64,000 nt of DNA from Candidatus Poribacteria bacterium (GCA_965197465.1 OZ240209.1:4288958-4352957), one strand, 5' to 3'. Shown: positions 154-63,406, counted from the stretch's first letter. A program made the numbers and translations. The notes: generated by a model not told the origin, from the sequence alone.

Positions 154-190
154 GATTAAGCGATTGAATAAGTAGTGCGATAGAAATCCC
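154..190 (+). mobile_element. 37-nt structured mini-element copy
   Basis: GATTAAGCGATTGAATAAGTAGTGCGATAGAAATCCC matches the consensus of more than 20 copies in the window. Confidence 0.8.
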
Positions 191-310
191 TCGGTGATCA
201 TCAATCCCCGATTTCCCCTTTTCTATCTGCACGAGCCCCTAAAAGCACCAGAGGTGCGACAGGTGTATAGCGACGCGAATTCTCAAACACCCCCCAAAGC
301 CCCAGCGAGG

Positions 311-347
311 AATCAACCGAGTGAATAACGAGGGTGATAGAATTCCT
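311..347 (+). mobile_element. 37-nt structured mini-element copy, 3' end hit by a MITE
   Basis: AATCAACCGAGTGAATAACGAGGGTGATAGAATTCCT. Confidence 0.8.
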
Positions 348-531
348 GTAAGTGTTTAGTGGCTAGTGATTAGTGGTTAGTAAACCCCCTGAAGGCATAA
401 GACGGGCAATGAATTGCCCTACTACGAACCAGAGGAATGGGTGTCCACACGTTGTACGCCTGAAAAAATAGCAAAAAGACCGTCTATATTTATAGCACTC
501 GACCCCAGAAAACAATGGACTAAACAGTTAC
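348..531 (+). mobile_element. MITE, 184 bp, TIR GTAA(G/C)TGTTTAGT, 8-bp TSD GAATTCCT
   Basis: Inverted termini; identical GAATTCCT at 340-347 and 532-539; full-length homologue at 49584-49766. Confidence 0.9.
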
Positions 532-762
532 GAATTCCTAATAGTGCTCCCATAGAAATCGGAGTGAAACCCAACACTTCATCGCATGTGATTGTCAATC
601 GCTAATTTCCATTCCTATCTTCCCGACAATCATCAAATCGTCGATTTCCCCTCTTCTTTGCTCGCGACAGGAGGTCGCGACCGGGAGATCGCTCCTACAG
701 GAGGTTTGTAGTAGTGCGATTTTTTGCATGTCCGGTGTCGGATTTGCCATCCGCTGTCTTCT

Positions 763-1533
763 TCAACCTACCAACTCACCGCGCACCACGGGTCGGTCAA
801 CCAGCAGTTCTCCCTCTCGGCTTCGCGTCCCGGTAGTCATGTAGTGAATTACCATCGCTCGACGCTCTCGCGCGGACGTATTCGGATTTGATTGGTGAAG
901 TGTCAGGCAATGATGCACCATCGCGTGCCCCGCTTTGACCGGCACCGCCACGGCGCGTTCGGTATCCACCTTAGCTGTCAAAAGAGCGGGCAATTTACCC
1001 TTCTCCGTTATTGCCCGCTCATGCGCCGCAAGCCCCTCGCGGTGGCTGCCCGGAACCACGTTCATGCAGCCGTTCTCCTCATCGGAGTCGTCAAGCGCCA
1101 TCCAGATGCTTACCAGATTCGGAGGGACGCAACCCCAGTAGCCATTGTCCTGATGCCAGTGCACCGCACCGCCATGATTCGCAGGCTTGTAGAGGGCTTG
1201 GTCGAAGAAAACCTGGATATTGGGTCCAATCAGACTCTCGGCAATGTCTAGCAAAGGCGAGTGATATAGCAACTCTCGAAAGACGTCGTTACGTTGCCAC
1301 ATCTGCTGAATCTGCAGCATCTCATCGGAGTGGTCGGCTTCCGGATCATCGGCCGACTCGCCAATCGCGGCGATGTTGCGTAGCCCATCACCGAATGTTC
1401 CGCGTTTCTGCGCGAACAGCGCATCGTAATGTTTTCGCAGAACTGCTAGGTGGTCGTCGGCTAAAACGCGGTGTTCGATTTTGAGATATCCTTCTCGCTG
1501 AAACTGTTCGACAGCTTGCCTTGTTACTTTCAT
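763..1533 (-). CDS. Phytanoyl-CoA dioxygenase (PhyH) family Fe(II)/2-oxoglutarate dioxygenase
   Basis: WHQDNGYW HxD motif, ENGCMNVVPGSH, distal H in LTLHQS and RRA motif; start overlaps trpC stop. Confidence 0.9.
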   Translation of the reverse strand: MKVTRQAVEQFQREGYLKIEHRVLADDHLAVLRKHYDALFAQKRGTFGDGLRNIAAIGESADDPEADHSDEMLQIQQMWQRNDVFRELLYHSPLLDIAESLIGPNIQVFFDQALYKPANHGGAVHWHQDNGYWGCVPPNLVSIWMALDDSDEENGCMNVVPGSHREGLAAHERAITEKGKLPALLTAKVDTERAVAVPVKAGHAMVHHCLTLHQSNPNTSARERRAMVIHYMTTGTRSREGELLVDRPVVRGELVG

Positions 1534-2318
1534 GAAGGCCCCTTTGACCCGAGCAACTCCCGAACCTTCCCGCCGATGTCGGCGCTCCTCATCAGTGACT
1601 CACCCACGAGGATGGCGTTCACATCTGCTTCGCCGAGTCTCAACACGTCCTCGCGGGTGTAAATCCCGCTTTCGCTAACAACGATCCTGTCGTCGGGAAT
1701 TGATTTCCGCAGGTGGAAGGACGCGGCGATGTCCGTGTGGAAGGTTTTCAGGTCTCGGTTGTTGATGCCGATGATTTCCGCCCCAACGTCAAGGGCAATT
1801 TCCAGTTCCGCTTGGGTGTGCACCTCTACTAGGGCGGTGAGATTGAGATGCCCCGCAATTCCAATGAATCCCCGCAACTCTTCCGCTGTCAAGATTGCCA
1901 CGATGAGCAGGATGGCATCTGCTCCCGCTACGCGCGCTTGATAGATGTGGTATTCGTCGATTGTGAAATCTTTCCGCAATAGCGGCAGACCGACAGCGTT
2001 GCGAATCCTACTCAGGTAGTCGAGATTGCCGCCGAAAAACCGATGGTCGGTCAGGACGGAAACTGCCGAGGCGCCGTTCTGCGCGTAGGTTTTGGCAATC
2101 TCCACCGGATTAAAATCTTCGCGGATAATCCCCTTGCTTGGCGATTTCTTCTTTACTTCCGCGATGAGGCTGACGGCGCCGGGTGCCGCCAGTGCAGCCT
2201 TGAAATCCCGCGTCGGCGGTAAATCCGGGATCCGACTCTTCAGCGTTTGGAGCGGTGCTCGTTCCCTGTCCCGCTTGAGTTCTTCTCGTTTGTGCGCAAC
2301 GATTGTATCCAGAATCAA
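1530..2318 (-). CDS. trpC: Indole-3-glycerol phosphate synthase
   Basis: IAEVKKKSPSKG, SVLTD, LRKDF, GINNRDL and VSESGI motifs. Confidence 0.97.
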   Translation of the reverse strand: MILDTIVAHKREELKRDRERAPLQTLKSRIPDLPPTRDFKAALAAPGAVSLIAEVKKKSPSKGIIREDFNPVEIAKTYAQNGASAVSVLTDHRFFGGNLDYLSRIRNAVGLPLLRKDFTIDEYHIYQARVAGADAILLIVAILTAEELRGFIGIAGHLNLTALVEVHTQAELEIALDVGAEIIGINNRDLKTFHTDIAASFHLRKSIPDDRIVVSESGIYTREDVLRLGEADVNAILVGESLMRSADIGGKVRELLGSKGPS

Positions 2319-3526: not shown

Positions 3527-3805
3527 AAGCCACAGAGGTGAAACACTCATCAGCGCGGCTAAGTTTTTTGTAGGGTGCGCACCGCGATCAAACGAGTGAA
3601 TAACGAGTGCGATAGGGATCGCACCAGCCTTTGAAAGCGTCAGTGGCCATCTTCGATTATCAAATCTCTGATGGAATCTTTAAGGTGTATCGTAGGAAAA
3701 AGAATGAAAACAATCCTCCTCAAATGACCAAAAATGGCATTGACTCCTATTCTTCAAACAGGCGCTAAGCCAAAGAGGTGAAACACCCATCCGCGCGGGT
3801 AGGTT
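3527..3805 (+). repeat. Imperfect ~39-bp direct repeat pair (AAGCCAnAGAGGTGAAACACnCATCnGCGCGG) 240 bp apart
   Basis: Copies at ~3527-3565 and ~3767-3805. Confidence 0.7.
3586..3620 (+). mobile_element. Mini-element inserted into a GTAGGGTGCGCAC-type REP
   Basis: Filled site GTAGGGTGCGCACCGC[35 nt]GCACCA versus empty site at 25621-25642 (minus strand). Confidence 0.85.
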
Positions 3806-25487: not shown

Positions 25488-25511
25488 AACCACGATGTCT
25501 CGATTCGGAGA

Positions 25512-44422: not shown

Positions 44423-44432
44423 TATACACTCT

Positions 44433-45503: not shown

Positions 45504-45523
45504 ACCACCCTCCATTTTTAGCC

Positions 45524-45773: not shown

Positions 45774-45902
45774 GCAAATGCTATGCCAAGTGCGTACGGG
45801 GCAGATAAACCTTCTCTGCGAGGGTTTCTAGCGTCGCACAGCCCCCGCGTGAGGGAATTCAGCCTGTACACTCTCCGGACAGAACTGTGCAGAAAGTGAG
45901 AC
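45774..45902 (-). promoter_or_regulatory. sigma54 (-24/-12) promoter with tandem activator sites
   Basis: TTGGCATAGCATTTGC at 45789-45774; TGTAC-N7-GGACA at 45865 and TGTGC at 45886. Confidence 0.75.
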
Positions 45903-46361: not shown

Positions 46362-48629
46362 CTATTTGCCCAACAGCATCTTTCGCGTGGATGTGAGATC
46401 ATCAGCGGATAAGGTGTAAAAATAGACGCCGTTCGCCACGGTCTCGCCCTGCTGATTGCGCCCGTCCCAATATGCCGCACGATTACGGCTCCGATACACA
46501 CCGGCAGGCTGGCGTCCCACTTCCAGCGTCCGAACCGCCTGCCCGTTCATATCATAAATCGTGAACGTGATGCTTGCTGGTTCCGCTAGTTGATACGGTA
46601 TCCACGTCTCGGGGTTGAACGGATTCGGGTAGTTTGGCAGAAGAACTGTTTCCACCGGCATCACCACAGCGGCTGTGGGCGCAGGTTCCGAGAATCGCCC
46701 CGTCCTACGCACCACCACACGTGTTCGTTTGACATCACCCCACATCGTCCCAAGCCTGAAGTCCCACAGCAAGACCGTCCCATCCGAACCCCAACTCGCC
46801 AACGTATGTCCATCGGCGGCAAATTCTACGGAATAGATGCTGCTTGTGTGCCCCTCAAACTGCCATAACGGCGCGCCGGTGCGAACGTCCCACAATCGAA
46901 TCGTGTCATCCCCGCCGGTGGCAAGCATATTCCCGTCAGACGAAAACGATAGTGCCCTGACCGCGCTCGAGCTTCCGTGTCCCGTTAGCGTATGCAGTAT
47001 TTCCCGAGTTCGAGTATCCCACACATGAACTGTCAAGCGGCTGCTTACGCTCGCGAACGTGTGACCATCGGGAGAAAATGCTATAGAGGTAATTGACGAG
47101 TACTCATCCAGTGTGTAAAGAAGCTCGCCGGTGCGCACATCCCAAACGTGAATCCCGGAATACAGACTTCCGGTGAAAACGCTTCTCCCATCCGGTGAAA
47201 ACGCCACCGCCTGTACATATTCCTCATCGGAGGAAATGACGCGAAGAGGGTCTCCGGTGCGCACATCCCACAAGCGAAGCAGACTGTTACCTTCATGGGG
47301 CCAGCCACCCGCAAAAACCCTTCCATCGGGTGAAAATGCGGCGGACACGAGATAGTCCGTGTGCGCCTCGAGAGTTTGCAGGACTTTTCCCGAACGCACA
47401 TCGCACAAGAGTATAGAGTGATGTCCACGTCTAATAGCAAGTGTGGTTCCATCAGGCGAAAACGCGAGGACACTGCCCGTAAGTCCGGGAAGGGTTCTCA
47501 ACTTCTCCCCGGAGTGGGCATCCCAAATCTCAATCGCGTCCGCGCTGCCAACTGCAAGGGTCTTTCCGTCGGGCGAGAATGCAAATCTCCAAACCGAGTG
47601 CACCAGCGTACGTAGATGCTCCCCGGTGCGGGTATCCCACAGACGAATCGAGCCGCGGCTCGCACTTGCCAGCCTGCCCCCATCGGGTGAGAAAACTATT
47701 GAGTTGACTCCCCCTGTGTGCCCTTGTAGGATTCGATCTTCCTCGCCGGTGCGGGCGTTCCACAATCGAACAGTGTCGTCATACCATCCGCCTCCACTCG
47801 CAAGCACGTCTCCGTCGGGCGAGAACGCCACGCAACCGACCGTGTGCGAATGCCCCTCAAGTGTCTGCACCAGTTCACCGGTGCGTGTGTCCCACAACTT
47901 AATCCTGCCAGCTCGGCTCAACCTAGGATTCACGCTGCCCGGTCTCCCGGCACTGGCGAGGGTAAGTCCGTCGGGCGAGAACGCGACCGACTTTACCGGG
48001 TGCTCATGACCTTTGAGCGTACGCAACTTTTTTCCGGTTTGGATGTCCCAAAACATGAGCGCACCGTCCCTACTCCCACTCGCGAGAGTCAATCCGTCGG
48101 GCGAGAAGGCTACGGTATCGACCCGTTCCGAGTGTCCCTCTAGCGTTCGCATGAGATCTGCGGTCCACACATCCCATAAACGGATAAGTTTGTCTTCGCC
48201 CGCACTGGCAAGCGTGGATCCATCGGGCGAGAACCTTACCGAGCGAACCGATCCCCCATGCCCTTCAATGGTTTCGAAGAGTGTACCGCTGCGGACATTC
48301 CATCCCCGAACCGTTCCGTCCGCCCCTCCGCTTGCAAGCGTATTTCCGCTGGGAGAAAACGCGACCGTATGCACTAAATCCGTATGCCCCGGGAGGAGCT
48401 TGAGCGTGACGCCGCTGCGTGCATCATACATCCATATATCTTCGTGAGTCGCAGCCGCGATCCGCCTCCCATCCGGTGAATATGCAATCTCGAATATCGG
48501 CGCTTTTCCGATGCGCATCTTGGCGCGCTCGGGCAGTCCCCATCGTGTTGAGTCCTGGGCATAACTGCTCCGCAGAAACACGGCGGAAACAAACAATAGG
48601 CAAAACCTGAAAATCCATGAGGTTCTCAT
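46362..48629 (-). CDS. Secreted WD40-repeat protein with TWG linker and FlgD-Ig tail
   Basis: Same architecture as 41875-44139; GTMWGDVKR linker. Confidence 0.93.
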   Translation of the reverse strand: MRTSWIFRFCLLFVSAVFLRSSYAQDSTRWGLPERAKMRIGKAPIFEIAYSPDGRRIAAATHEDIWMYDARSGVTLKLLPGHTDLVHTVAFSPSGNTLASGGADGTVRGWNVRSGTLFETIEGHGGSVRSVRFSPDGSTLASAGEDKLIRLWDVWTADLMRTLEGHSERVDTVAFSPDGLTLASGSRDGALMFWDIQTGKKLRTLKGHEHPVKSVAFSPDGLTLASAGRPGSVNPRLSRAGRIKLWDTRTGELVQTLEGHSHTVGCVAFSPDGDVLASGGGWYDDTVRLWNARTGEEDRILQGHTGGVNSIVFSPDGGRLASASRGSIRLWDTRTGEHLRTLVHSVWRFAFSPDGKTLAVGSADAIEIWDAHSGEKLRTLPGLTGSVLAFSPDGTTLAIRRGHHSILLCDVRSGKVLQTLEAHTDYLVSAAFSPDGRVFAGGWPHEGNSLLRLWDVRTGDPLRVISSDEEYVQAVAFSPDGRSVFTGSLYSGIHVWDVRTGELLYTLDEYSSITSIAFSPDGHTFASVSSRLTVHVWDTRTREILHTLTGHGSSSAVRALSFSSDGNMLATGGDDTIRLWDVRTGAPLWQFEGHTSSIYSVEFAADGHTLASWGSDGTVLLWDFRLGTMWGDVKRTRVVVRRTGRFSEPAPTAAVVMPVETVLLPNYPNPFNPETWIPYQLAEPASITFTIYDMNGQAVRTLEVGRQPAGVYRSRNRAAYWDGRNQQGETVANGVYFYTLSADDLTSTRKMLLGK

Positions 48630-48748
48630 CGATTGATGCTCCCTTTCGGCAGCCGTAAATTACTTCGTGAGTTCAATAGTCAACCGGGGCAAGAAAATTT
48701 GAGGGGACAGAATGCCAACGGGTCAACTAGCGGCGATTTAGATGGATC

Positions 48749-48921
48749 GTAATTGTTTAGTCCATCGGTCTGGATTTGCCAATCCAGACCGAGCGGGGGG
48801 CAGGGAACGCGCCGAGTAGGGAAGTACAATGCTAATTCCGGCTAATCGGGGGCTTACATGCCCAGACCGGACGTGCGACGATCTGTAATACTACGAACCA
48901 AACGATGCACTAAACAGTTAC
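48749..48921. mobile_element. MITE of the GTAACTGTTTAG family with degenerate TSD
   Basis: GTAATTGTTTAGT...ACTAAACAGTTAC; flanks GATGGATC / GCCGGATC. Confidence 0.7.
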
Positions 48922-48966
48922 GCCGGATCCTATAAAATCCGAAGGCGGCGTAGGAACGTCCGAGGT

Positions 48967-49530
48967 TTATCGCGACGCTTCAATCCTTTCTTCGCTGAAT
49001 GCTTCGTCGCCCCACTCTAAAATTCGCCATTCGCCGTCTCTCAATTCAAAGATAAACAGATTATCTCCTTCGGCATACCACCCGGTATATCCGCCCTCGA
49101 GCGAGACTCCGTCTGCCACGAATCCTTGAATCCTATAGTGGACCCTAACTTCAGCTCTGTTGCGCTCCGCGTTCAACTCCACCTCGGGCGGCTCTTCCAA
49201 CTCAATCTCAATGTCTTGGAACAATGCAAACACGCGAATGGCAGATTCTCGCTCTTCACGAATATCATCAAACGTCACATCATCCGTCGCATCGTCGGGT
49301 GTACCCATATCCGAGACATAACGGAAGCCGTCCGTCCAGAAAGCATTGATGTACGCATCTACATCCTCGGTTTCATAACCGGTACGCCACGCTCTCAACA
49401 CCTCTTCAATCTCAGCCAACTCTTTGGATTTCGGTTCACCGAACTTTTCAACATCGCTGCAACTCAGAAAGCATGAAGTCATAAGAACAGTGAGTAGTAG
49501 CATGCCTGTTCTGGCAAAAGCGTTAAACAT
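48967..49530 (-). CDS. Lipoprotein, NTF2/SnoaL-like fold
   Basis: Lipobox FLSC; IEEVLRAWRTGYETEDVDAY...FELRDGEWRI pattern; AGGAGG RBS. Confidence 0.7.
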   Translation of the reverse strand: MFNAFARTGMLLLTVLMTSCFLSCSDVEKFGEPKSKELAEIEEVLRAWRTGYETEDVDAYINAFWTDGFRYVSDMGTPDDATDDVTFDDIREERESAIRVFALFQDIEIELEEPPEVELNAERNRAEVRVHYRIQGFVADGVSLEGGYTGWYAEGDNLFIFELRDGEWRILEWGDEAFSEERIEASR

Positions 49531-49583
49531 GATTGAAAACCTCCTTAAGCTCTAAATGTTAGGATTTTGATTAAAGAAAATAG

Positions 49584-49766
49584 GTAACTGTTTAGTCCCT
49601 TGATTTCTGGAGTCGAGCACTGTGAATCTAGACTGCTTTTTTCCCATTTTCTAGGCGGGTCTCGTGTGGATGCTCATTTTTCCGGTTTGTAATAGGGCAA
49701 TTCATTGCCCGTCCTATGGCTCTGGGGGTTTTACTGACCACTAATCACTAGCCACTAAACACTTAC
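49584..49766 (-). mobile_element. MITE, 183 bp, 8-bp TSD GAAAATAG
   Basis: Full-length inverted homologue of 348-531; GAAAATAG at 49576-49583 and 49767-49774. Confidence 0.9.
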
Positions 49767-49773
49767 GAAAATA

Positions 49774-49983
49774 GTAACTGCTTAGTCCATCAATCTATAT
49801 CGCCGTTGTCGGTATGTAGTAGCGCAATTCATTGCACGTCCGCCGTAGTTCGTATCGGGGCAAGGATGCCCCTCCCACAAGGGAATGCTGCTTTCTCAGA
49901 GGGATGCTCTTCCTACCGTCAATCGGGCCCAAATAAATGCCAAGCTGATTTTTCCTCATTTTTGAACCGAACTAAACAGTTAG
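49774..49983. mobile_element. Adjacent older MITE with the same TIR family, containing REPs
   Basis: GTAACTGCTTAGTCC...ACTAAACAGTTAG. Confidence 0.65.
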
Positions 49984-50191
49984 AAAAATGTAATACACGT
50001 GTAATACATGATGGATTCACATTGTAGAATTGAAGAAGTAAAGAGTTGTCCAATCAAAGAGATATACATGCACCGCAAAACCAGTCCCGCCGACTCATAT
50101 GGATTTACGGCGAGCACCGGAACTCTCTCTGTTCCGTTCCCAATAGCATTGTTACTCTTCATAATTTTATGCGCGAGGGGGAGTATCAACC

Positions 50192-52450
50192 CTATTTGCC
50201 GACCAACATTTTGCGCGTCGCAGTAAAATCACCCGCAGTCAGCGTGCAGAAATAGACGCCATTCGCCACCGTCTCGCCCTGCTGATTCCTGCCGTCCCAA
50301 TATGATGCGCGACCTCGATCAGTGTAGAATCCGGCTGATTGATACCCTAAATCAAATTGTCGCACCAACACACCTGCCGCATCATAGATGGTGAGCGTCG
50401 CATCGGCGTCGTCCGCGAGATGGAACGGTATCCACGTCTCCGGATTGAAGGGGTTCGGGTAATTTGGAAGAAGTGCAGTGGTTGTCGGAGTTAAAGGCGT
50501 GACCGAAGGTGATAGCCCCAACGATTGCCTCGTCCCATCAACGATTCCCATTTGTTTAATGTCACCCCATGTTGTGCCAAATCTCGTTCCCCACAGCAGT
50601 ATTGTGCCGTCGTTACTCCCGCTGACAAGCGTGAAACCATCGGGCGAGAACGCTAAGGAGGTGACAGTTTCCGTATGCCCCTCAAGGGCGTACAACTCCG
50701 CGCTGGTATGCGCATTCCACAATCGAATCGTCGTGTCGCCGCTCCCACCGGCAAGTGTGAAATCATTGGGTGAGAACGCCACGGAAGTAATTTGGTCTGT
50801 GTGCCGTCCGATTAGAAACCACAATCGCCCGGTGCGAGAATCCCACAGACGAATACTCCCGTCCTCATAGCCCCCGCCGCTGGCAAGTATGGAACCGTCG
50901 GTCGAGAACGCTACGGAACGCACCTCACTCATCTGCCTCTCTATGCCATATGGTGTTCCATCCTTGGTATCCCACAGACGAACTGCCGCGCTAGTGCTTC
51001 CGCCCGCAAGTGTAGACCCGTCCGGAGAAAACGCGATCGACAGAATCTCGTCGCCGTAATGCCGATGCTTCCACAAGTGTTCCCCGGTGTGTGCATTCCA
51101 CAGACGAATCGTCTCGTCGCTGCTCCCGCTTGCAAGCGTGGAACCATCGAGCGAAAATGCCAGGCACAAAATGTCATGGGTATGCCTTTCAAGCGTCTGC
51201 AGGTGTTCGCCGCTGTGCGCATCCCACAGGCGAATCGTGGCATCGCCGCCTCCGCTGGCAAGCGTGGAACCGTCTGGAGAAAACGCAACGCAATAGATGT
51301 CTTCCGTATGTCCCTCCAGCGTCTTCAGGAGTTCTCCGGTGTGCGCGTCCCACAAACGAATCGACGTGTCACCGTTCACACTGGCAACTGTAAACCCATT
51401 GGGTGAGAACGCTACGAAACGCACCTCGCGCGTATCGCCTTTAATCGTCCCCCGAAGTTTGCCGGTAGGCACGTCCCACAATTGAATCGTGTTGTCCCTA
51501 CTCGCACTTGCAATCGTTAGGTCGTCGGGTGAAAACGTCACCGAATTAACGGTATTAACGGTATGGTGATGCTCGTCGATTGTGCGCAAACCTTCCCGCT
51601 TATGGACATCCCACAACCGAATGGTGTTGTCTTCGCTCGTACTGGCGAGTGTTGTCCCGTCGGAGGAGAACGCAATGGAACCAACTGCCCATTGCCCCCC
51701 AAGAGCGCCCAAATAGTTTCCAGAGCGCACATCCCACAAACGAACCCTTTTCAAGTCGCCGCTGGCGAGCATTCTTCCGTCAGGTGAAAATGCGACCGAT
51801 AAGACGCCGCCGAAGTGTCCCTCAAAAGTACCCAGGTGCTCGCCCGTGTGGGGGTTCCACAAACGAACCGTGTTGTCGTTCCATTTGCTTCCACTGGCAA
51901 GCGTAACGCCGTTGGGTGAGAACACCAAGGCGAGAACCGCGCTCGTATGTCCTTGAAGGCGGCGCAAACGCTCTCCGGTGCGAACATCCCACAGAGGAAT
52001 TTCCCTGCCGTCTCCTGCAGCAAGCGTCGAACCATCGGACGAAAACGCGACCGAAGTTATATGATTCGTGTGCCCCTCGAAGATCTTTAAGGGTTTCCCG
52101 GTGCGAACATCCCACGTACGAACGGTGTTGTCTCCGTCAGCTCCGCAACTGGCAAGCATAGCGCCATCCGGCGAGAAATCTATGCACCGTACGGGGCGCG
52201 TATGCCCACTCAGCAAGTTGACTTCGGCGCCTGTGGTTGCATCGTAGAGCCAGGTCCCGATGCTACTCGCGACTGCGAGCAGGGATCCATCAGGCGAATA
52301 TGCGACATCGCCGGATATCCAGCCCTTGCCGAGTCTTACTTTTGCGCCATCGGGCAGTCCCCAGCGGACATGGTCTTGGGCAAAGCTAGTCTGTAAAATC
52401 AGTGTATAAACGAATAAAATGCTGAGTTTGAAAAACCGCGATTTTCTCAT
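50192..52450 (-). CDS. Secreted WD40-repeat protein with TTWG linker and FlgD-Ig tail
   Basis: WD40 repeats, GTTWGDIKQ, LLPNYPNPFNPETWIPF. Confidence 0.93.
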   Translation of the reverse strand: MRKSRFFKLSILFVYTLILQTSFAQDHVRWGLPDGAKVRLGKGWISGDVAYSPDGSLLAVASSIGTWLYDATTGAEVNLLSGHTRPVRCIDFSPDGAMLASCGADGDNTVRTWDVRTGKPLKIFEGHTNHITSVAFSSDGSTLAAGDGREIPLWDVRTGERLRRLQGHTSAVLALVFSPNGVTLASGSKWNDNTVRLWNPHTGEHLGTFEGHFGGVLSVAFSPDGRMLASGDLKRVRLWDVRSGNYLGALGGQWAVGSIAFSSDGTTLASTSEDNTIRLWDVHKREGLRTIDEHHHTVNTVNSVTFSPDDLTIASASRDNTIQLWDVPTGKLRGTIKGDTREVRFVAFSPNGFTVASVNGDTSIRLWDAHTGELLKTLEGHTEDIYCVAFSPDGSTLASGGGDATIRLWDAHSGEHLQTLERHTHDILCLAFSLDGSTLASGSSDETIRLWNAHTGEHLWKHRHYGDEILSIAFSPDGSTLAGGSTSAAVRLWDTKDGTPYGIERQMSEVRSVAFSTDGSILASGGGYEDGSIRLWDSRTGRLWFLIGRHTDQITSVAFSPNDFTLAGGSGDTTIRLWNAHTSAELYALEGHTETVTSLAFSPDGFTLVSGSNDGTILLWGTRFGTTWGDIKQMGIVDGTRQSLGLSPSVTPLTPTTTALLPNYPNPFNPETWIPFHLADDADATLTIYDAAGVLVRQFDLGYQSAGFYTDRGRASYWDGRNQQGETVANGVYFCTLTAGDFTATRKMLVGK

Positions 52451-52517
52451 TGATTGATTCTCCTTGCTGCGAATTCGGCCCCTGGGGTTACGGCACACGG
52501 CGTGTGCCTACTACCTT

Positions 52518-54821
52518 CTACTTGCTCACCAACATTTTCCGTGTGGCGGTGAAATCTCCTGCGGTCAGCGTGCAGAAGTAGACGCCATTCACTACTGTCT
52601 CTCCCTGCTGATTTTGTCCGTCCCAATATGCCGCGTGACCTCGCTCGGTGTAGAATCCCGCTGGTTGATATCCCAAATCAAATTGCCGCACCAACGCACC
52701 TTTCCCGTCATGGATCGTGAGCGTGACATCGGCGTCGCCCGCGAGATGGTACGGCATCCACGTCTCCGGGTTGAACGGATTCGGATAGTTGGGCAGAAGC
52801 GCCGTTTCTGTAGGCGTTAGGGGTGCGGTTGAAGTTGAGGGTTCCGGGAATTGCCTCATCCCATCGGTAACCGACGCTCGCTTGGTGTTGCTCCAAGTCG
52901 TCGCACGCATCAGGTCCCAGAGTAAAATTGTGCCATCGCCGCTCCCACTCGCAAGCGTGAGTCCATCCGGAGAAAATGCTACAGAACTTACCCAATCGGC
53001 ATGTCCTTCAAATGTCCGCAGGTGTTCCCCGGTGCCAGAATTCCATAGACGGACTGTGTCGTCCCAACTCCCGCTCGCAAGCGATACGCCGTCGGGAGAA
53101 AACGCTACGGACCCCACCCCGCTCGTATGTCCTTCAATTGTCCGCAGACGTTCACCAGTGATCGCATCCCATATACGAATCGTGTCGTCCGAACCCCCGC
53201 TCGCAAGCGTAAGCCCATCGGGAGAAAACGCCACGGACGTGACAGAGTATTGGTGCCCCACTAGAGCGTGCGTGGCATTCGCCGTACGGAGATCCCAGAG
53301 ACGAACTGTCGCGTCGTTCCATCCGCCGCCGCTCGCAAGCATAGAACCATCGGGCGTAAACGCTATGGTAGAGACAGTGCCCACATGGCCCGTTAGAGTT
53401 TCCAGCCTCTCACCGGTGCGGACATTCCATAAATGAACCTTGCTGCCATACCCACTGGCAAGCAGTCTCCCGTTGGGTGAAATCGCCACGGAATCGACAT
53501 CTCCCCATCCCAATCCAATCCTCTCCCAAAGGATATGTAAACTTTCGCCGGTGTGCGCATCCCACAAACGAGCTGTAAGGTCTGAACTGCCGCCGCTAGC
53601 AAGCGTGGAGCCTTGCGGCGAGAACGCCAAGGACACGACTCGGGTCTCATGTCCCTTCAGGGCAAGGAAGTTTCTTCCGGTATGCACATCCCACAGAAGA
53701 ATCGGATCGTCAATATATCCTGTGCCACTCGCAAGCGTAATGCCATCGGGAGAATATGCGATGGAATTCACAGGCGTCGTGTGTTCTACGATGGCCAGAA
53801 TATCTTCGCCAGTGTGCACATCCCATAACCACACCGTTCCGTCCCGACTACCCCCGCCCGCAATTGTCAACCCATCCGGCGAAAACACTATGAAATCAGC
53901 AGAACCAGTATGCCCATACAATGCCTTTAGATGTTCCCCGGTGTGGACATCCCACAATCGTACAGGGTCGTTTGAGCCTCGACCTCCACTCGCAAGCGTA
54001 AGACCATCGGGCGAGAACGATATGGAACTCACACCGACCGCTCGTTCTTCAAACGGACGCAGGAGTTCTCCGGTGCTGACACCCCATAGAAGAATTGTGG
54101 TGTCCACCCAACTGTAGCTGCCACTGGCAAGCATTGAGCCATCGGGCGAGAACGCTACCTCACTGACTCCACGGACCTGCCCCTTGAGCGTGTGCAGGAG
54201 CTCACCGGTGTGGACATGCCACAGACGAATTGTGCTCACCTCCCAACCGCCTCCGCTCGCAAGTGTGGAACCATCGGGCGAAAACTGAACAACTTCGACC
54301 GACTGCGAATGACCGGAAAGTGCTCGCAAGAACTCCCCGGTGCGAATATCCCACAATCGAACCGTCTTGTCGCCGCTCCCGCTGGCGAGCGTAAGTCCAT
54401 CAGGCGAGAACACCACAGATTCGACCGAGCGCGAATGTCCCTCAAGTGTATGCAGATGCGTCCCGGTGCGCACATCCCACAGACGGACTGTTTTGTCTCT
54501 CGACCCTCCGCCGCTAGCGAGCGTAAGTCCATCAGGCGAGAACGCTACGGCATACACCCTATCTGAATGCCCGGTGAGAAGATTGACTTCGGCGCCAGTT
54601 TTCGCGTCATAGAGCCATACGCCGATGATACTTGGGACAGCGAGCAGGGCTCTGTCCGGGGAATAGGCAATCTTGCCGGTTATCTCACCCTTGCCGAGCC
54701 GCATCTTGGCGCCATCGGGCAACCCCCACCGGGTATAGTCTTGGGCATAGCTAGTCTGCAAAGACAATGACAATGCGGTACCGAACATGACGCTGAGTAT
54801 GAAAAACCGAGATCTTCTCAT
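52518..54821 (-). CDS. Secreted WD40-repeat protein with TTW linker and FlgD-Ig tail
   Basis: WD40 repeats, ATTWSNTKR, LLPNYPNPFNPETW. Confidence 0.93.
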   Translation of the reverse strand: MRRSRFFILSVMFGTALSLSLQTSYAQDYTRWGLPDGAKMRLGKGEITGKIAYSPDRALLAVPSIIGVWLYDAKTGAEVNLLTGHSDRVYAVAFSPDGLTLASGGGSRDKTVRLWDVRTGTHLHTLEGHSRSVESVVFSPDGLTLASGSGDKTVRLWDIRTGEFLRALSGHSQSVEVVQFSPDGSTLASGGGWEVSTIRLWHVHTGELLHTLKGQVRGVSEVAFSPDGSMLASGSYSWVDTTILLWGVSTGELLRPFEERAVGVSSISFSPDGLTLASGGRGSNDPVRLWDVHTGEHLKALYGHTGSADFIVFSPDGLTIAGGGSRDGTVWLWDVHTGEDILAIVEHTTPVNSIAYSPDGITLASGTGYIDDPILLWDVHTGRNFLALKGHETRVVSLAFSPQGSTLASGGSSDLTARLWDAHTGESLHILWERIGLGWGDVDSVAISPNGRLLASGYGSKVHLWNVRTGERLETLTGHVGTVSTIAFTPDGSMLASGGGWNDATVRLWDLRTANATHALVGHQYSVTSVAFSPDGLTLASGGSDDTIRIWDAITGERLRTIEGHTSGVGSVAFSPDGVSLASGSWDDTVRLWNSGTGEHLRTFEGHADWVSSVAFSPDGLTLASGSGDGTILLWDLMRATTWSNTKRASVTDGMRQFPEPSTSTAPLTPTETALLPNYPNPFNPETWMPYHLAGDADVTLTIHDGKGALVRQFDLGYQPAGFYTERGHAAYWDGQNQQGETVVNGVYFCTLTAGDFTATRKMLVSK

Positions 54822-54851
54822 CGGATAATTTTCTTCCGGCAAACGTAAATT

Positions 54852-57140
54852 CTATTTCCTGATTAACATTTTCCGCGTCGTACTAAAACCGCCTGCCCTT
54901 AGGGTGCAGAAATAGACGCCATTTGCTACCGTCTCGCCCTGTTGATTGCGTCCGTCCCAATACGCCGCCCGCTCGCGGCTCCGGTACGCACCAGCCGGCT
55001 GGTATCCCACTGCCAGTGTCCAAACCGCTCGCCCGTTCATATCATATATCGCCAGCGACACCTCAGCGGGCTTCTCCAACTGGTACGGTATCCAGGTCTC
55101 GGGATTGAACGGGTTCGGGTAGTTCGGCAGGAGCGCCGTTGGTGCTAAGGGTGCGGCTGAAGGTGAGAGTGCCGGCAATTGCCTCGTCAAATCGGTAACC
55201 GACACTCGCTTGGCGTCGCCCCAAGTCGTTGCACGCATCAGGTCCCACAGTAGAACCGTGCCGTCTGTGCTCGCGCTAGCCAAGGTTGAGCCATCGGGCG
55301 AGAAAGCCACGCTGGTGACTGACAACCAATTCCAGTTGAAGGTCTTCCTGATCTCCCCGGTGTGTACATCCCGCAATCGAATCACGGCGTCTCGGCCCCC
55401 GCTGGCAAGCATGCCCTCACGGCGCGAAAACGCAATAGCATTGAGCCCACCGGATTCGTCACCGAGGATTCGCAGACTTTTCCCGGAGTGTACATCCCAC
55501 AATCGGATGGTATCGTCTCGACTCCCACTGGCAAGCATGGAACCGTCCGACAGGAACACTACGGAAATGACTTCGTCTGTGTGTCCCTCCAGCATCCCCA
55601 AGTTTTCTCCTGTACGTACGTCCCACAAACGAATCGTGTCGTCTAGACTACCACTGGCAAGTGTGGATCCGTCCGGAGAAAACACTACGGACGAAACCGC
55701 GTTTACGTGTCGACCGAGGGTATGTATTCCTTTTCCCGTGCCCGAATCCCACAACCGAACTGTGTTGTCCCAACCACCACTAGCGACCGTGCGCCCGTCG
55801 GGTGAGAACGCCACCGAATACACCTCGCCCGCATGCGCCTCAAGCGTATGTAGCCGTTCTCCGGAGCGGATATCCCATAACCGAACCGTTCCGTCGTATT
55901 CGCCGCCGCCGCTGGAAAGCGTATACCCATCGGGCGAAAATGCCAAACAACTCACTCCGTGCGTATGTCCCTCGAGTGTTTGCTTGTGCTCCCAAGTTCG
56001 TGCATCCCACACACGAATCGTACCGTAAACGCCGCTGTGTGCAAAGAGATGGCCATCAAGCGAAAAAGCAATAGCGCCTTCCGTGTACGGATATCCCCCA
56101 CGATATCCCTCGATGGTATGCTTGTGTTCCCGAATTCGCATATCCCAAAAACGAATCGTACCGTCCCAACTTGCGCTGACAAGCGTGAGCCCGTCGGGTG
56201 AGATTGCTACAGAAGTCACCCCATCCGTATGTCCGGTTAGCGTCTTCAGGTGTTCTCCCGTATGCCCATCCCACAATCGTATGGTCTCGTCCCGACCTCC
56301 GCTGCAGAGTATGAGTCCATCCGGGGAGAACGCTACCGAGGTTACTTCTTTCACATGCCCCTCAAGCGTATGCAGGTGTTCACCCGTACGCGCATCCCAC
56401 AAACGCACTGCGTTGTCATACCAACCGCCAGCGCTGGCAAGCGTTGAACTGTCAGGCGAGAACGCTAACCAATTGGATTCATCCTTATGCCCCTCAAGCG
56501 TATGCAGGTGCTCACCCGTGCGGACATCCCACAAGCGAATTGTCTCCTCCCGACCGTCTGCGCTGGCTAGCATGGAACCATCCGGGGAGAACGCCACCGC
56601 GTTCACCGAAATTTTGTGACCGTGAAACGAGCGCAGGTGCTCACCCGTACGCACATCCCACAGACTGATTGAGTCGTCCCGCTCTGAGCCGATACGATTT
56701 CCGCTAGCGAGGGTAGAGCCGTCGGGGGAAAACGCCAGAGCAGTTATATAAAGCGCATGACCCTTGAGCGTTCGCCGGTGCTCACCCGTATAGGCGTCCC
56801 ACAAACGAATTGTAGGGTCGTCCCTGCCGCGGCCGCCGCTAGCAAGCGTGGCGCCGTCCGGAGAAAACGCGACGGAACCGACCCGAGCTGTATGCCCTGT
56901 GAGCAGGTTGAGTTCGGTGCCGGTCCCGGCATCATAAATCCAAATACCGGCATTGCTCGCGATCGCGATCCGAGTCCCGTCGGGTGAATAGGAAATATTG
57001 CTGGTTATTTCACCCTTCCCGATGCGCGTTTTCGCGCCTTTGGGCAATCCCCATCGTGTATAATCTTGGGCGAAACTGCGCGGCACAAACAGAGCAACAG
57101 CGAGCAATAGGTAAAGTTTGAATATCCATTTACTCCTCAT
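54852..57140 (-). CDS. Secreted WD40-repeat protein with TTWG linker and FlgD-Ig tail
   Basis: WD40 repeats, ATTWGDAKR, LLPNYPNPFNPETWIPYQL. Confidence 0.93.
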   Translation of the reverse strand: MRSKWIFKLYLLLAVALFVPRSFAQDYTRWGLPKGAKTRIGKGEITSNISYSPDGTRIAIASNAGIWIYDAGTGTELNLLTGHTARVGSVAFSPDGATLASGGRGRDDPTIRLWDAYTGEHRRTLKGHALYITALAFSPDGSTLASGNRIGSERDDSISLWDVRTGEHLRSFHGHKISVNAVAFSPDGSMLASADGREETIRLWDVRTGEHLHTLEGHKDESNWLAFSPDSSTLASAGGWYDNAVRLWDARTGEHLHTLEGHVKEVTSVAFSPDGLILCSGGRDETIRLWDGHTGEHLKTLTGHTDGVTSVAISPDGLTLVSASWDGTIRFWDMRIREHKHTIEGYRGGYPYTEGAIAFSLDGHLFAHSGVYGTIRVWDARTWEHKQTLEGHTHGVSCLAFSPDGYTLSSGGGEYDGTVRLWDIRSGERLHTLEAHAGEVYSVAFSPDGRTVASGGWDNTVRLWDSGTGKGIHTLGRHVNAVSSVVFSPDGSTLASGSLDDTIRLWDVRTGENLGMLEGHTDEVISVVFLSDGSMLASGSRDDTIRLWDVHSGKSLRILGDESGGLNAIAFSRREGMLASGGRDAVIRLRDVHTGEIRKTFNWNWLSVTSVAFSPDGSTLASASTDGTVLLWDLMRATTWGDAKRVSVTDLTRQLPALSPSAAPLAPTALLPNYPNPFNPETWIPYQLEKPAEVSLAIYDMNGRAVWTLAVGYQPAGAYRSRERAAYWDGRNQQGETVANGVYFCTLRAGGFSTTRKMLIRK

Positions 57141-60449: not shown

Positions 60450-61220
60450 ATGGATAAACAGCATACAACCTCAAACCCATATGCAATCGTCGGACGGAAT
60501 TCCGTGTTGGAACTCTTGCGTGGAGGTGAGCGTGAGATTGAGCTAATCCAGATTGCGCAGGGACGAGACCACCCACGGCTGCGTCAAATCACCTCGCTCG
60601 CTCAGAAAAAGGGAATCCGCTGTGATTTTGTTCCCCGCATTGAACTAGATCGACTTGAGTCAACAATCCCTCATCAGGGCGTTATCGCCATTGCCAGCCC
60701 CAAGAAATACTTGGAAATCGGAACGCTGCTTGAGCAAATCCAGGGCGAACGGGGAGACCGCCCTCCCTTGATTGTAATGTTGGATGGGGTTCAAGATCCG
60801 CACAACCTCGGCGCAGTCATGCGAACAGCCGACGCTGCGGGCGTGGATGGGATTGTGATTCCAAAGAATAGAGCGGTGGGGGTAACGACAACCGTCCATA
60901 AAGCATCGGCGGGCAGCGCGGAATATATCCCGGTTGCCCAAGTCACGAATCTCGCGCGAACTATCGAGCGTATAAAAGACTCCGGACTTTGGGTTATCGG
61001 AGCTGAGCAGGAAGCGCCGCAAATTTACACAAAAGCAGATTTCAGCGTGCCGCTTTGTCTCGTCTTGGGCAATGAAGCGGAGGGGCTGCGAAGGCTCGTG
61101 AGGGAAAAATGCGATTCGCTGGTTCGTTTACCGATGCACGGTCATTTGCCGTCTTTGAACGTGTCGGTAGCGGCGGGAGTGCTACTATACGAGGTTCTTC
61201 GGCAAAGGACGCAAGCGTGA
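60450..61220 (+). CDS. rlmB: 23S rRNA (G2251-2'-O)-methyltransferase
   Basis: HQGVIA, LDGVQDPHNLGA, LGNEAEG and SLNVSVA SPOUT motifs. Confidence 0.93.
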   Translation: MDKQHTTSNPYAIVGRNSVLELLRGGEREIELIQIAQGRDHPRLRQITSLAQKKGIRCDFVPRIELDRLESTIPHQGVIAIASPKKYLEIGTLLEQIQGERGDRPPLIVMLDGVQDPHNLGAVMRTADAAGVDGIVIPKNRAVGVTTTVHKASAGSAEYIPVAQVTNLARTIERIKDSGLWVIGAEQEAPQIYTKADFSVPLCLVLGNEAEGLRRLVREKCDSLVRLPMHGHLPSLNVSVAAGVLLYEVLRQRTQA

Positions 61221-61294
61221 ATCCTCACGGCGGTTAGAGTTATTGCAACCAAGAATTATACACATAGGACTTACACAGTCCAGTCTGTAGGAGC

Positions 61295-61378
61295 GATCAA
61301 CTGAGCGGACAGCGAAGGCGATAGAGATCCCTCTCCGAGTCGATCAAGCGACTGAACAAGGAGCGCGATAGTAATCCA
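61295..61378 (+). mobile_element. Two separate mini-element insertions in one GTAGGAGCGATCTCC REP
   Basis: Empty REP at 31190 and 34121 reads GTAGGAGCGATCTCCGAATCGCGAC; here it is split twice by +35 nt. Confidence 0.88.
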
Positions 61379-61499
61379 TACCTGTCGGGAATCGGAATTC
61401 CCTCCTACGGGGGCGATTGGCTCTTTCCGTTTTCCCCGGTATCAGCAAATTGCTTTATTTGTCATTGCGAAATTTCTCTCAAGACCCAAGATGACCGCG

Positions 61500-62195
61500 T
61501 CAAATCCCTCCCTCCTCCTTCAAGCTGGTATAGATTCCATCTCCGATGATGATGTGATCCAGCACTGGGATTTGGATGTGATTTCCCGCCGCGATTAACT
61601 CCTTTGTCGCCCGAATGTCCTCTTTGCTCGGAGCGGGATCCCCGGACGGGTGGTTGTGAACCAAAAGAATAGCGGCTGCCGCCTCCTCGATGGCGAATCG
61701 AAAAACCTCGCGCGGATGGATAATGCTGGCGTTCAGGCTGCCTTCAAAGATTTGGCGCCTCTTGATTACGTTGTGCTTGGTATCAAGGCAGAGAACGTAC
61801 AATACCTCCTGTTTGAGATCCCGCATGGATGACATCATTAGCCGCGCAACGTCGGACGGCGCGGAGATTTGAAATTTCTCCTCAAAATACGACGCCATGC
61901 GACGTCCCAACTCAAAAGACGCTTTGATTTGAGCCGCCTTTACCGCCCCCAAGCCCTTGACACCCTCTCCCAGTTGCTGCGGAGTCTCATCTGCGATTCG
62001 TTTCAGGTTGCCATCGTACTTTTTCAACAACTGCTCCGCCACCTGCACGGCGGTGGCTTGCCCGGTTCCGGTGCGGATAATGATTGCCAGCAACTCCGAC
62101 GTTTTCAGCGCCTCGGGACCATGCTCTCGGAGACGTTCCATCGGACGCTCGTCTGCCGGCAGATCTTTCAACCGAATGTGATACTCAGATTCCAT
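61500..62195 (-). CDS. radC: RadC/UPF0758 JAB-domain protein
   Basis: ERPMERL, KGLGAVKA, HPREVF, HNHPSGDP and LDHIIIG. Confidence 0.95.
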   Translation of the reverse strand: MESEYHIRLKDLPADERPMERLREHGPEALKTSELLAIIIRTGTGQATAVQVAEQLLKKYDGNLKRIADETPQQLGEGVKGLGAVKAAQIKASFELGRRMASYFEEKFQISAPSDVARLMMSSMRDLKQEVLYVLCLDTKHNVIKRRQIFEGSLNASIIHPREVFRFAIEEAAAAILLVHNHPSGDPAPSKEDIRATKELIAAGNHIQIPVLDHIIIGDGIYTSLKEEGGI

Positions 62196-62231
62196 TTTTC
62201 CCAATATGCCTTACGCGGCATTGGTCGAGGA

Positions 62232-63200
62232 TTACAGGTTAATCTGCTTTCCTTGGGCGAACGATTCACTCGCCGCCAGCGTAACTTCCACGGTTTTCAG
62301 CCCTTCGGAATAAGGAGCGAGAATCTCCGACGAATCTCCGCTCTTGACGGCGTCAATAAAGACTCGATCCTCGCGCACAGAGCCGTTGACATCATTGTCG
62401 ATCGATTGGGTTTCCCCGGCGCGATTGACAGCGGTGTCACCGGAATTGACTTCGACGACGAGTCCGCGGCAGTGCACCTCAAGCTTTACCCTACCCCACC
62501 CTTCCAGCATGCAGGCGGAGGTTATGTTTGCAACGGCGCCATTGGCAAATTTAAGATTGACAACACTCATATCGTCAACATCGTAGTTTGGTACGTCGGT
62601 CATGCTGCCTTGGGCAGCGAATCCGTGCACGGCGACGACATCACTCCCGACGAGATAGCGGCACAGATCGAAGATGTGGGTCGTCTGCTCAACGTGTTGT
62701 CCGCCCGACTCGGCGCGAACACGCCACCACGGAACTCCCGGCATACCGCCCATCCAGTAGCCTAGCGCGCCCACTACGCTTGCGCCTTCAAGAGCGGCTT
62801 TTGCTTTGCGCGTGTGACCCTGATAACGCCAATGATAGCCGACGCTGGTAATAATGCCGCTGCTTTGCACGGCTTCGTGAATCTCTTGTGCCACGTCCCT
62901 ACAAGTGCCGACCGGCTTCTCAATAAAAAATGGAATGCATTTTTCGCACGCAATCAACTCCTGTTCCCCATGCACGAAGGGGGGAGTACAGATGTATACG
63001 GCGTCCAACTCCTCTTTGTCATACATCTCTTTGTAGTCGGTGTAAGGGGTGCCGCCATATTTTTGTGAGGCGTCGTTAGCCCGCTCCTCCGAGATGTCGC
63101 ACATGGCGGCAAATTCGACATCGTCAAATCCCGCCAGATTCCTCATGTGGCCGCCTGCCCTTCCGCCAACGCCGATCTCGCCAATTTTTACTATATCCAT
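62232..63200 (-). CDS. Gfo/Idh/MocA family oxidoreductase
   Basis: Rossmann GVGG, ICTPPFVH, EKP and SGGQ..EQTTH.FD motifs. Confidence 0.92.
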   Translation of the reverse strand: MDIVKIGEIGVGGRAGGHMRNLAGFDDVEFAAMCDISEERANDASQKYGGTPYTDYKEMYDKEELDAVYICTPPFVHGEQELIACEKCIPFFIEKPVGTCRDVAQEIHEAVQSSGIITSVGYHWRYQGHTRKAKAALEGASVVGALGYWMGGMPGVPWWRVRAESGGQHVEQTTHIFDLCRYLVGSDVVAVHGFAAQGSMTDVPNYDVDDMSVVNLKFANGAVANITSACMLEGWGRVKLEVHCRGLVVEVNSGDTAVNRAGETQSIDNDVNGSVREDRVFIDAVKSGDSSEILAPYSEGLKTVEVTLAASESFAQGKQINL

Positions 63201-63243
63201 TTTTTCCTCCGTTAATTCCGACTCTTGCGCATCGCGAATCAAA

Positions 63244-63406
63244 TAGGTCTTACGCAGTTGAACTCCCCGACGCCTCGTAATGGCGATTCATTATGCGTAA
63301 TGGGATTTGCTATCGCCCTCGCTGTTCACTCGGTTGATCGATAGAACTCCCATTACTTAACATCCTTATCTTATTCTATGAATCGGGGCAACCTGAGTAA
63401 GTTCTA
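63244..63406. mobile_element. TAGGACTTACGCA-type MITE carrying nested mini-elements (63302-63351)
   Basis: TAGGTCTTACGCAG...CTGAGTAAGTTCTA termini; reverse copy GATCAACCGAGTGAACAGCGAGGGCGATAGCAAATCCC abutting a forward 3' tail. Confidence 0.65.

Follow-up and report, generated by a model that had tools for sequence, protein, structure and literature searches.

A stretch of 64,000 nt from a Candidatus Poribacteria genome (GCA_965197465.1, OZ240209.1, positions 4288958-4352957; hereafter the window) carries numerous copies of a 30-37-base repeat, which we consider a real and apparently undescribed miniature mobile element. The genome is a single contig of 6.63 Mb with 50.1% G+C. Each copy can form a small irregular hairpin whose paired bases change in step while the bases between them stay constant. 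On balance, we favor the view that the copies form a family of tiny, non-autonomous modules of mobile DNA, resembling the small dispersed repeats (SDRs) of Nostoc or REP elements (repetitive extragenic palindromes), and probably moved as single-stranded DNA (ssDNA).

Copies were collected with the 37-nt pattern GATCAA-n7-n8-GA-n11-n12-GRAYA-n18-n19-GA-n22-n23-GCGATAG(a/t)RATCCC. The eight stem positions are wildcards in this search and pairing was thus not selected for. Across the genome, the pattern matches 159, 606, 995 and 1076 times when 0, 2, 4 and 5 substitutions are allowed in the fixed positions, and the reversed genome yields no match at 5 substitutions. The 1076 copies include 685 distinct 30-mers, and 999 of them lie outside long open reading frames (ORFs), which according to a crude call cover 79% of the genome. 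Head modules alone (at most one mismatch) occur 1461 times, against 5 in the control. The window holds 12 full copies, 8 on the plus and 4 on the minus strand, and a covariance model built from 150 distinct copies recovers the identical 12 with 46-57 bits. Furthermore, the 17-nt head motif (at most two mismatches) is present at 23 places in the window and at 2 in the reversed window; three of the two-mismatch matches fall within WD40-type genes (49589, 57644, 57764) and may be due to chance. The tail motif GCGATAGNRATCCC (at most one mismatch) gives 8 matches in the window where 0.22 are expected. An earlier note on this DNA had counted more than 20 full or partial copies. The motif is indeed found at every place it cited, as 12 full copies plus partial units, and at 46313 as a head fragment only. 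Genome-wide, the tetranucleotides GATC (observed/expected 0.59) and GGCC (0.38) are under-represented; the 1076 copies alone contain 1343 GATC sites.

The conserved core comprises GATCAA, an irregular hairpin of 17 nt and GCGATAG. It is followed by a lineage-specific tail of about 7 nt, which reads ARATCCC in the genus of the window. In a second genus (g4, see below) GCGATAG is followed by TCTTCTC, TTTTCAC and similar sequences, and the conserved unit is therefore nt 1-30. In the predicted fold, two 2-bp Watson-Crick steps (7-8:22-23 and 11-12:18-19) would enclose tandem G-A/A-G pairs (9-10:20-21), and a G13-A17 pair would close a loop of three bases. An A6-G24 pair and the ATC/GAT segments may extend the stem. 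Only the four Watson-Crick pairs would be free to vary, in step.

The four pairs covary strongly. Watson-Crick or G-T combinations account for 92.2% (7:23), 92.7% (8:22), 92.7% (11:19) and 95.2% (12:18) of the 1076 copies, compared with 51, 59, 50 and 80% expected from column composition. Their mutual information amounts to 1.02, 0.86, 0.72 and 0.34 bits, which places all four among the five top-ranked pairs of the element. The remaining one, 34:35, stems from a tail that varies in length by 1 nt. In an alignment of 150 distinct copies (12 from the window and 138 from loci of other genomes), 94.3% of the cells are paired versus 62.4% after shuffling, and none of 500 shuffles reaches the observed value. 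Cells with a double change number 268 versus 47.5 in the shuffles, and sliding the 3′ partners by 1-3 columns leaves 24-59% paired. RNAalifold returns exactly 7:23, 8:22, 11:19 and 12:18 from this alignment. Within the 12 full copies of the window, 45 of 48 cells are paired; the copy at 28119 breaks both inner pairs and that at 25525 breaks one. About ten outer pair types combine almost freely with about eight inner types. Given this free combination and the 685 distinct 30-mers, the covariation does not stem from a few subfamilies. The proposal that the hairpin is kept by compensatory change, which was first drawn from a hand alignment of 16 copies with 59 of 64 cells paired, is thus borne out by the genome-wide counts, by the larger alignment with its controls and by RNAalifold.

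The assertion that the sequence drifts freely did not hold, since at 19 of 30 core positions one base is present in at least 90% of the copies. Variation is confined to the eight stem positions, loop positions 14 and 16, and the tail. G9, A10, G20 and A21 are each about 95% invariant. Wobble pairs are frequent at 7:23 (268) and 12:18 (191), with only 28 at each of the two pairs flanking the tandem G-A. In addition, an A before a conserved G is rare (11, 10, 22 and 11 of 1076 at positions 8, 12, 19 and 23), and so is a T after a conserved A (16, 14, 13 and 5 at positions 7, 11, 18 and 22). Sheared G-A pairs prefer a Py-GA-Pu context, and this neighbor-base rule fits a sheared geometry of the tandem G-A. 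Taken together, the invariance, the wobble limits and the neighbor-base rule point to non-canonical G-A pairs. The ATC(2-4)/GAT(26-28) pairing is present in predicted folds; it is invariant, and its few variants are non-compensatory (3:27 is TA in 1042 copies, CG in 2 and GG in 3). Recognition ‘by shape, not sequence’, as once suggested, goes too far: the shape part can be kept, but with 19 of 30 positions nearly invariant recognition is likely by both shape and sequence. A closing helix between the upstream flank and the tail was also considered, and was dropped for want of covariation between the two.

The fold works on one strand only. Among the 4304 cells, G-T/T-G combinations (515) far exceed A-C/C-A combinations (95), which assigns the fold to the written strand. 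Folding with RNA parameters agrees, with mean energies of -4.56 kcal/mol for the top strand, -1.94 for the bottom strand and -2.45 for arm-swapped chimeras, so that both lines of evidence support the one-strand claim of the earlier note. Under these parameters, all four pairs are present in the minimum-energy fold of 788 of the 1076 copies. Adjacent copies no more than 200 nt apart share their orientation in 201 cases and are inverted in 28 (20 tail-to-tail, 8 head-to-head). Furthermore, the folding strand prefers the regionally C-rich strand (302 vs 195 after balancing for gene orientation, p about 2e-6). This preference holds although the sense strands of genes are G-rich and copies lean towards gene sense: relative to neighboring co-directional genes, 279 de-clustered copies are in the same orientation and 199 in the opposite one. 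An orientation bias that follows strand composition independently of genes argues for a strand-dependent process at the DNA level. Regional gene-strand bias is no predictor of copy orientation (53 vs 55 in convergent/divergent contexts).

The same data can be read in favor of RNA. The fold could act in a transcript, either as a protein-binding or stabilizing motif with a tandem G-A internal loop, or as part of an RNA intermediate spread by reverse transcription. The clear top-strand fold with RNA parameters, the G-U tolerance typical of RNA and the modest excess of copies co-oriented with flanking genes would all be expected on this account. We nevertheless regard it as unlikely. A share of 42% of the copies would be antisense to its neighbors, orientation tracks regional strand composition independently of genes, and neighboring copies are direct in 88% of cases. 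Moreover, the reverse-transcriptase matches of the genome are weak or broken, Rfam gives no match for the window or, with E up to 10, for 61200-61450, and the position table of the 1076 copies shows no T-run 3′ of the element.

The arrangement of the copies in the window is as follows.

154-190, plus strand: full copy, 46.1 bits, four of four pairs; a GTAGGTTGGGTTGAAC-type REP lies just upstream (about 131-146).
311-347, plus strand: full copy with an AATCAA head, 47.9 bits, behind a CCCCAGCGAGG hairpin-repeat remnant.
3586-3622, plus strand: full copy, 51.6 bits.
25512-25561, minus strand: full copy (25525-25561) with a second tail (GATAGAGATCC) downstream; detected by pattern, covariance model and head motif.
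28119-28155, plus strand: full copy with both inner pairs broken, preceded by GTAGGAGG.
31272-31308, plus strand: full copy set in opposite orientation into the tail of a minus-strand array.
31316-31404, minus strand: four tandem head/hairpin modules (31316, 31338, 31361, 31388); 0 to 3 units at the orthologous site in other species of the genus.
39563-39688, plus strand: a truncated head at 39563, the full copy 39575-39611 and additional tails at 39622-39635 and 39675-39688.
41094-41189, minus strand: nested array with a complete 23-nt hairpin unit (head 41173-41189), a full copy (41130-41166), then two or three tails.
41537-41609, minus strand: nested array with a unit truncated after nt 19 (head 41593-41609), a full copy (41554-41590) and a second tail (41537-41550).
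46314-46330, plus strand: head fragment alone (CATCAAGCGACTGAACA), without tail; detected by head motif.
61283-61378, plus strand: GTAGGAGC REP arm with two full copies (61295-61331, 61342-61378); the same REP arm is empty in the closest species.
63303-63351, minus strand: full copy (63303-63339) abutting a plus-strand tail-like piece (63339-63351).

Many copies reside inside other repeats. At least six abundant families of GTAG-type REPs are present in the genome (GTAGGCGGGGCATCTTGCCCCGCC, GTAGGTGCGGTT..AACCGCACCTAC, GTAGGGTGCGCA.., GTAGGAGCGATCTCCGAATCGCGAC, GTAGGTTGGGTTGAAC and GTAGGGAACGCAGATCTGCGTTCC), with 14-mers occurring 85-156 times; examples in the window lie at 131-146 and 61283-61290. 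A GTAG is found 6-14 nt upstream of 233 of the 1076 copies, and in 193 of these 233 the distance to it is 8 or 9 nt. In 120 of the 233 (13 in the control), the last five bases of the host have their complement within 25 nt downstream, which places the element between the arms of the REP hairpin. About 83 of 437 GTAGGTGC REPs and 57 of 232 GTAGGCGGG REPs are filled in this way (about 19-25%), with smaller shares in three other families. Altogether, 220 of the 1076 copies lie in GTAG REPs, 267 directly behind another head, 54 in a CCAG(A/C)GG hairpin repeat, 40 in the reverse tail of another copy and 495 elsewhere. The earlier account of the element as a dispersed intergenic repeat was incomplete in this respect: its copies stand, but their nesting inside GTAG REPs and inside one another had been missed. 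Nor had the note recognized a poribacterium, and not a cyanobacterium, as the source.

Self-nesting yields arrays of the form head-head-tail-tail. The arrays at 41094-41189 and 41537-41609 both read as a resident unit, then an inserted full copy, then the tail of the resident, and nested insertion is the best explanation of this order. The units of an array differ at the variable pairs and are therefore not fresh slippage products. Tandem heads are preferentially spaced by 23 nt (104 cases), 19 (53), 17 (45) and 18 (36). These peaks do not agree with a self-insertion rule in which a fixed distance of 8-9 nt from GATAG-like tags in resident copies would set the site.

Several junctions can be read directly. 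Clean comparisons of filled and empty sites with the closest species are provided by three clusters (40, 59 and 71). A REP arm GTAGGAGGGAATTCC was filled after GG-G, a 33-nt unit was inserted after nt 10 of a resident copy, inside its GATC, and another unit entered the center of a GTAGGGTGGGCAC REP. At window 61283, the REP arm GTAGGAGCGATC... is filled between GCG and ATC. Where the element sits in REPs, it replaces 0-4 host bases beginning with G. For cluster 40 (window 61283-61420) it was also considered that the 5′ arm had been copied from the target (host GCGAC); plain insertion after the host G explains the junction equally well, and the idea was rejected. The same variant (36 of 37 nt identical) lies in the left REP arm of this cluster in one species; the other species has it flipped, in the right arm at the mirror position. 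Neither arm is inverted itself. One variant in opposite arms of the same REPIN (an inverted REP doublet) suggests exchange between arms.

Copies appear and disappear between species, as expected from the mobility proposed earlier. At window 31271-31538, ten species of the genus share one REP locus as spacer. Three of them carry no unit there and three carry other REPs; one species each has one, two and three units, and the present genome has four units plus an inverted full copy. Over 400 kb compared with the closest species (genes 85-97% identical), the latter carries 123 elements in 84 clusters, of which 40 could be mapped by both flanks. At 29 of these 40 element-bearing sites the corresponding interval here holds no element, and only two or three element pairs are clearly orthologous between the two genomes. 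In cluster 30 the elements at the orthologous site differ at seven of the eight variable positions within flanks about 90% identical. In clusters 27 and 28, the orthologous copies are distinguished by nothing but ordinary point changes, and one of these breaks a pair. In public sequencing runs, seen as assembled contigs only, breaks occur at the repeats (for example a contig end at 28119), and the joints listed link different copies.

Alternatively, the element itself might not be mobile. It could have entered a few REPs once and then been carried along as REP-associated tyrosine transposases (RAYTs) copied REPs and REPINs, with the arrays arising by slippage or unequal recombination. This would account for the 220-233 of 1076 copies at a fixed place in GTAG REPs, for the enrichment of copies near Y1 transposase genes and for the apparent arm exchange in cluster 40. 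Against it, 495 of the 1076 copies lie in none of the four scored repeat contexts, and many pair combinations occur inside one REP family. The element is also found in at least five REP families with unrelated stems and in a non-GTAG hairpin, and the differences at variable pairs between array units speak against recent slippage. Lastly, genera rich in the same RAYT groups, such as g6, do not have the element. We give this account a small chance of being correct.

The distribution of the element is patchy. A scan of named genome records with the 30-nt core returned at least 108 stretches, and all those listed are from Candidatus Poribacteria metagenome-assembled genomes (MAGs). In a survey of 176 Poribacteria genomes from 31 genera, in which the reversed pattern gave 0 matches everywhere, high copy numbers were confined to two genera: that of the window (g1; 10 of 10 genomes, 576-1253 matches each) and g4 (4 of 4 genomes, 189-213 each), which belongs to a different family. 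Seven more genomes have 1-19 matches and 155 have none. In g4 (locus L093 and others), part of the copies are arranged tail-to-tail as inverted doublets, between which lies a conserved spacer of 19 nt (TCTTCACTGTCGGTTAAAA-like). This REPIN-like arrangement is rare in the genome of the window.

An enzyme for the element was sought among the Y1 (PF01797) proteins, which belong to the HUH nucleases. The genome has 10 such loci. None of them lies in the window, in line with the earlier statement that no cognate enzyme is encoded there. A copy of the element is found within about 600 nt of 7 of the 10 loci, compared with 22-25% of all genes (p about 0.002). Three loci resemble ‘subclass 1.2’ of Quentin et al. 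2018, judged by the motifs given in PMC6006769, whose passage on this subclass describes it as being without typical IS200 end structures. Two RAYT-like groups (R1 and R2) are common to the genome of the window and the second element-bearing genus. Occurrence was counted among 40 relatives. As cognate enzyme, the subclass-1.2-like Y1 was rejected for its pattern (g1 9/9, g4 2/4, g6 7/7, g3 5/10), and so were R1 (g1 6/9, g4 3/4, g6 6/7, g3 3/10) and R2 (g1 6/9, g4 2/4, g6 3/7). One g1 genome with 844 copies (G007) has no match to R1 or R2. The search for a co-occurring HUH/Y1 gene or reverse transcriptase, which the earlier note had advised, thus brought up no partner: none of the three traced groups co-occurs with the element, and reverse-transcriptase matches in the genome are weak or broken.

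The subclass-1.2-like Y1 genes have a repeat of their own. In several genera they are flanked on both sides, in inverted orientation, by a covarying hairpin repeat CGCTCC-AG(A/C)GG-AGCG (also GCCCC..GGGGC) followed by (C/A)ATGT, and not by the 37-nt element. This arrangement was read in orientation at five plus-strand loci and is visible in most of seven others. The repeat is seen at loci L001, L019, L020, L022 and L028, and also in the window at 41488-41504 (minus strand).

We propose that copying or movement of the element involves a single strand, most probably ssDNA at replication. The invariant G-A platform and its flanks would be read by an enzyme that is encoded elsewhere and is specific for both structure and sequence; a HUH/Y1 (RAYT-like) protein would be the leading, as yet unproven, candidate. 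Copies unable to fold would not be propagated, which would maintain the covariation. Beyond this scheme, we tentatively entertain, as a minority view among our own readings, that the element stands for a new class of miniature mobile DNA: a 30-nt G-A-rich hairpin recognized on one strand and moved by an enzyme outside the Y1/RAYT groups present, able to home into the stems of its own copies as well as those of other hairpin repeats, and passed between two sponge-dwelling Poribacteria genera.

Several observations weigh against movement as ssDNA by such an enzyme. DNA nearest-neighbor parameters give the fold little stability, with a mean of -1.14 kcal/mol (chimeras -1.07) and the four pairs in the minimum-energy fold of only 122 of 1076 copies, although this parameter set may lack terms for sheared G-A pairs. 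Strand preference is a second difficulty. If the leading strand is G-rich, the folding strand lies mostly on the leading-strand template, which is opposite to what is reported for IS608. The cumulative GC skew of the genome is flat, so that no origin or terminus can be placed and the leading-strand polarity is uncertain. Furthermore, the junctions are imprecise, with 0-4 host nt replaced and inserted lengths of 33 to 37 nt, unlike the exact cut-and-paste of known HUH transposases. REPs may explain the proximity to Y1 genes indirectly, since they flank RAYT genes and serve the element as insertion sites. Finally, no enzyme is tied to the element, as none of the three traced Y1/RAYT groups follows the g1 and g4 distribution.

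It might also be argued that complementarity is made by the copying mechanism and not by selection, for instance if the 5′ arm templated a snap-back synthesis of the 3′ arm or if mismatches were corrected in an extruded hairpin. The numerous, freely mixed pair types and the cluster 30 copies, which differ at seven of eight variable positions between well-conserved flanks, would suit this idea. However, about 95% of the copies retain the G-A/A-G and G13-A17 mismatches in place of ‘corrected’ pairs, wobble tolerance depends on position (268 and 191 vs 28 and 28), and the orthologues of clusters 27 and 28 differ by point changes only, one breaking a pair. We therefore consider it very improbable. 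A merely repeated binding site in double-stranded DNA, such as a palindromic operator or nucleoid-protein site, would agree with the intergenic location and the many invariant positions, but is scarcely credible since the half-sites covary rather than being conserved, G-T and A-C cells are asymmetric (515 to 95), the invariant G-A/A-G positions are not self-complementary, and copies nest and turn over rapidly between species.

Our preferred reading of a mobile module moved as ssDNA can be compared with known systems. The SDRs of the Nostocaceae, reportedly described by Elhai et al. in 2008 as modules of 21-27 nt, were named as the nearest precedent by the earlier note, and the comparison, which covered module size and mode of insertion, upholds this choice. 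In both cases the module is tiny (a complete hairpin unit here spans 23 nt, which is also the main tandem spacing) and inserts at a defined point within another repeat, here 8-9 nt from GTAG in 193 of 233 copies or at GCG^ATC. The two differ in host phylum, which is Poribacteria and not cyanobacteria, and in host repeats, which are GTAG REPs. We know of no tandem G-A motif in SDRs. SDR5 of Nostoc, as treated in PMC4390886, inserts in HIP1 at GCG^ATC, the same position as in the REP arm at 61283. HIP1 is not enriched in the present genome (128 vs 101 expected), and the setting is therefore not cyanobacterial. The main text of the review by Delihas 2011 (PMC3184786) has no mention of ‘SDR’ or ‘Elhai’.

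REPs and REPINs with their RAYTs share with the element high-copy intergenic hairpins and copies enriched near Y1 genes, and the genome has both GTAG REPs and RAYT-like genes. In size and abundance the element resembles a REP, usually a palindrome of 20-40 bp, with 37 nt and 999 of 1076 copies intergenic. However, its stem has only 2+2 Watson-Crick pairs with G-A mismatches and is not a long G+C-rich palindrome, and it is a guest inside REPs. In the definition cited from Di Nocera et al. 2013 (PMC3733652), an unpaired GTAG or CGTC tag stands at one end of the palindrome. The element has no such tag, as it starts with GATCAA and ends with GCGATAG plus tail, and the GTAG near 233 of 1076 copies belongs to the host REP. 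For REPINs, the replicative unit as put forward by Bertels and Rainey 2011 (PMC3116915) is an inverted REP doublet. Here, neighbors are mostly direct (201, with 20 tail-to-tail and 8 head-to-head), and inverted doublets are found only in some g4 loci. For a REPtron, in which a RAYT is flanked by its repeat and shares its distribution, the picture is mixed: copies lie near 7 of 10 Y1 loci, and the three Y1 groups do not follow g1 and g4.

The subterminal hairpins of IS200/IS605 elements and of palindrome-associated transposable elements (PATEs) are likewise imperfect and depend on one strand. In the description of PMC6006769, one strand of ssDNA is read by the Y1 HUH enzyme and orientation is linked to the replication strand. 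Those hairpins end longer elements with exact junctions, whereas the Poribacteria element is a single unit of 30-37 nt without cargo and with fuzzy junctions. [quoted passage not shown] Integron attC sites combine conserved structure with variable sequence and are recognized as folded single strands. Compared by anatomy only, they differ in being 57-141 nt long, lying behind cassette ORFs in arrays and carrying R and L boxes, none of which applies here. RNA motifs with tandem sheared G-A (kink-turn, loop E-like) share the G-A/A-G flanked by Watson-Crick pairs and the Py-GA-Pu context. The internal loop of the element is symmetric and lacks a 3-nt bulge, and the element is therefore not a kink-turn.

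The earlier statement that no description of this family was known still stands. Scanned against Rfam, the window gives no match at gathering score and the segment 61200-61450 none even with E up to 10, and a literature search, from which supplements were excluded, found no paper on such repeats and no report of REPs in Poribacteria. We conclude that the element works like a REP- or IS200-type hairpin, with a one-strand fold, invariant bases and a link to the strand, and resembles the Nostoc SDRs in behavior, as a tiny module with a set place in another repeat. Direct evidence of turnover is rarely available for repeats of this size (23-37 nt), and how they move has been a question ever since the description of the Nostoc SDRs. 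The present family offers several handles on it: copies number in the thousands over 14 genomes, four covarying pairs surround the invariant G-A, host sites in REPs are defined, and the patchy distribution permits a screen for an enzyme that co-occurs. In an uncultured phylum of sponge symbionts, REP hairpins serve as landing pads for a second layer of mobile DNA, which bears on assembly, strain typing and intergenic evolution. If the element does represent a new class, moved by an enzyme outside the Y1/RAYT groups, and the Nostoc SDRs work alike, the two would define a widespread and unrecognized ‘hairpin-into-hairpin’ mode of transposition.

Two other repetitive features are found in the window. 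The sequence at 24500-25490 is the 3′ kilobase of an ORF (24009-25487, 492 aa) with a C-terminal sorting-domain-like end, and every genome of the ten species in the genus holds dozens of matches to it (72-84% identity). This multi-copy sequence of about 1 kb was considered as a transposase and rejected, since it is the end of a large family of secreted-protein genes. On the minus strand at 42244-57137, long arrays of 126-nt periodic repeats with 60-80% identity represent WD40-type repeat genes in several paralogous copies.

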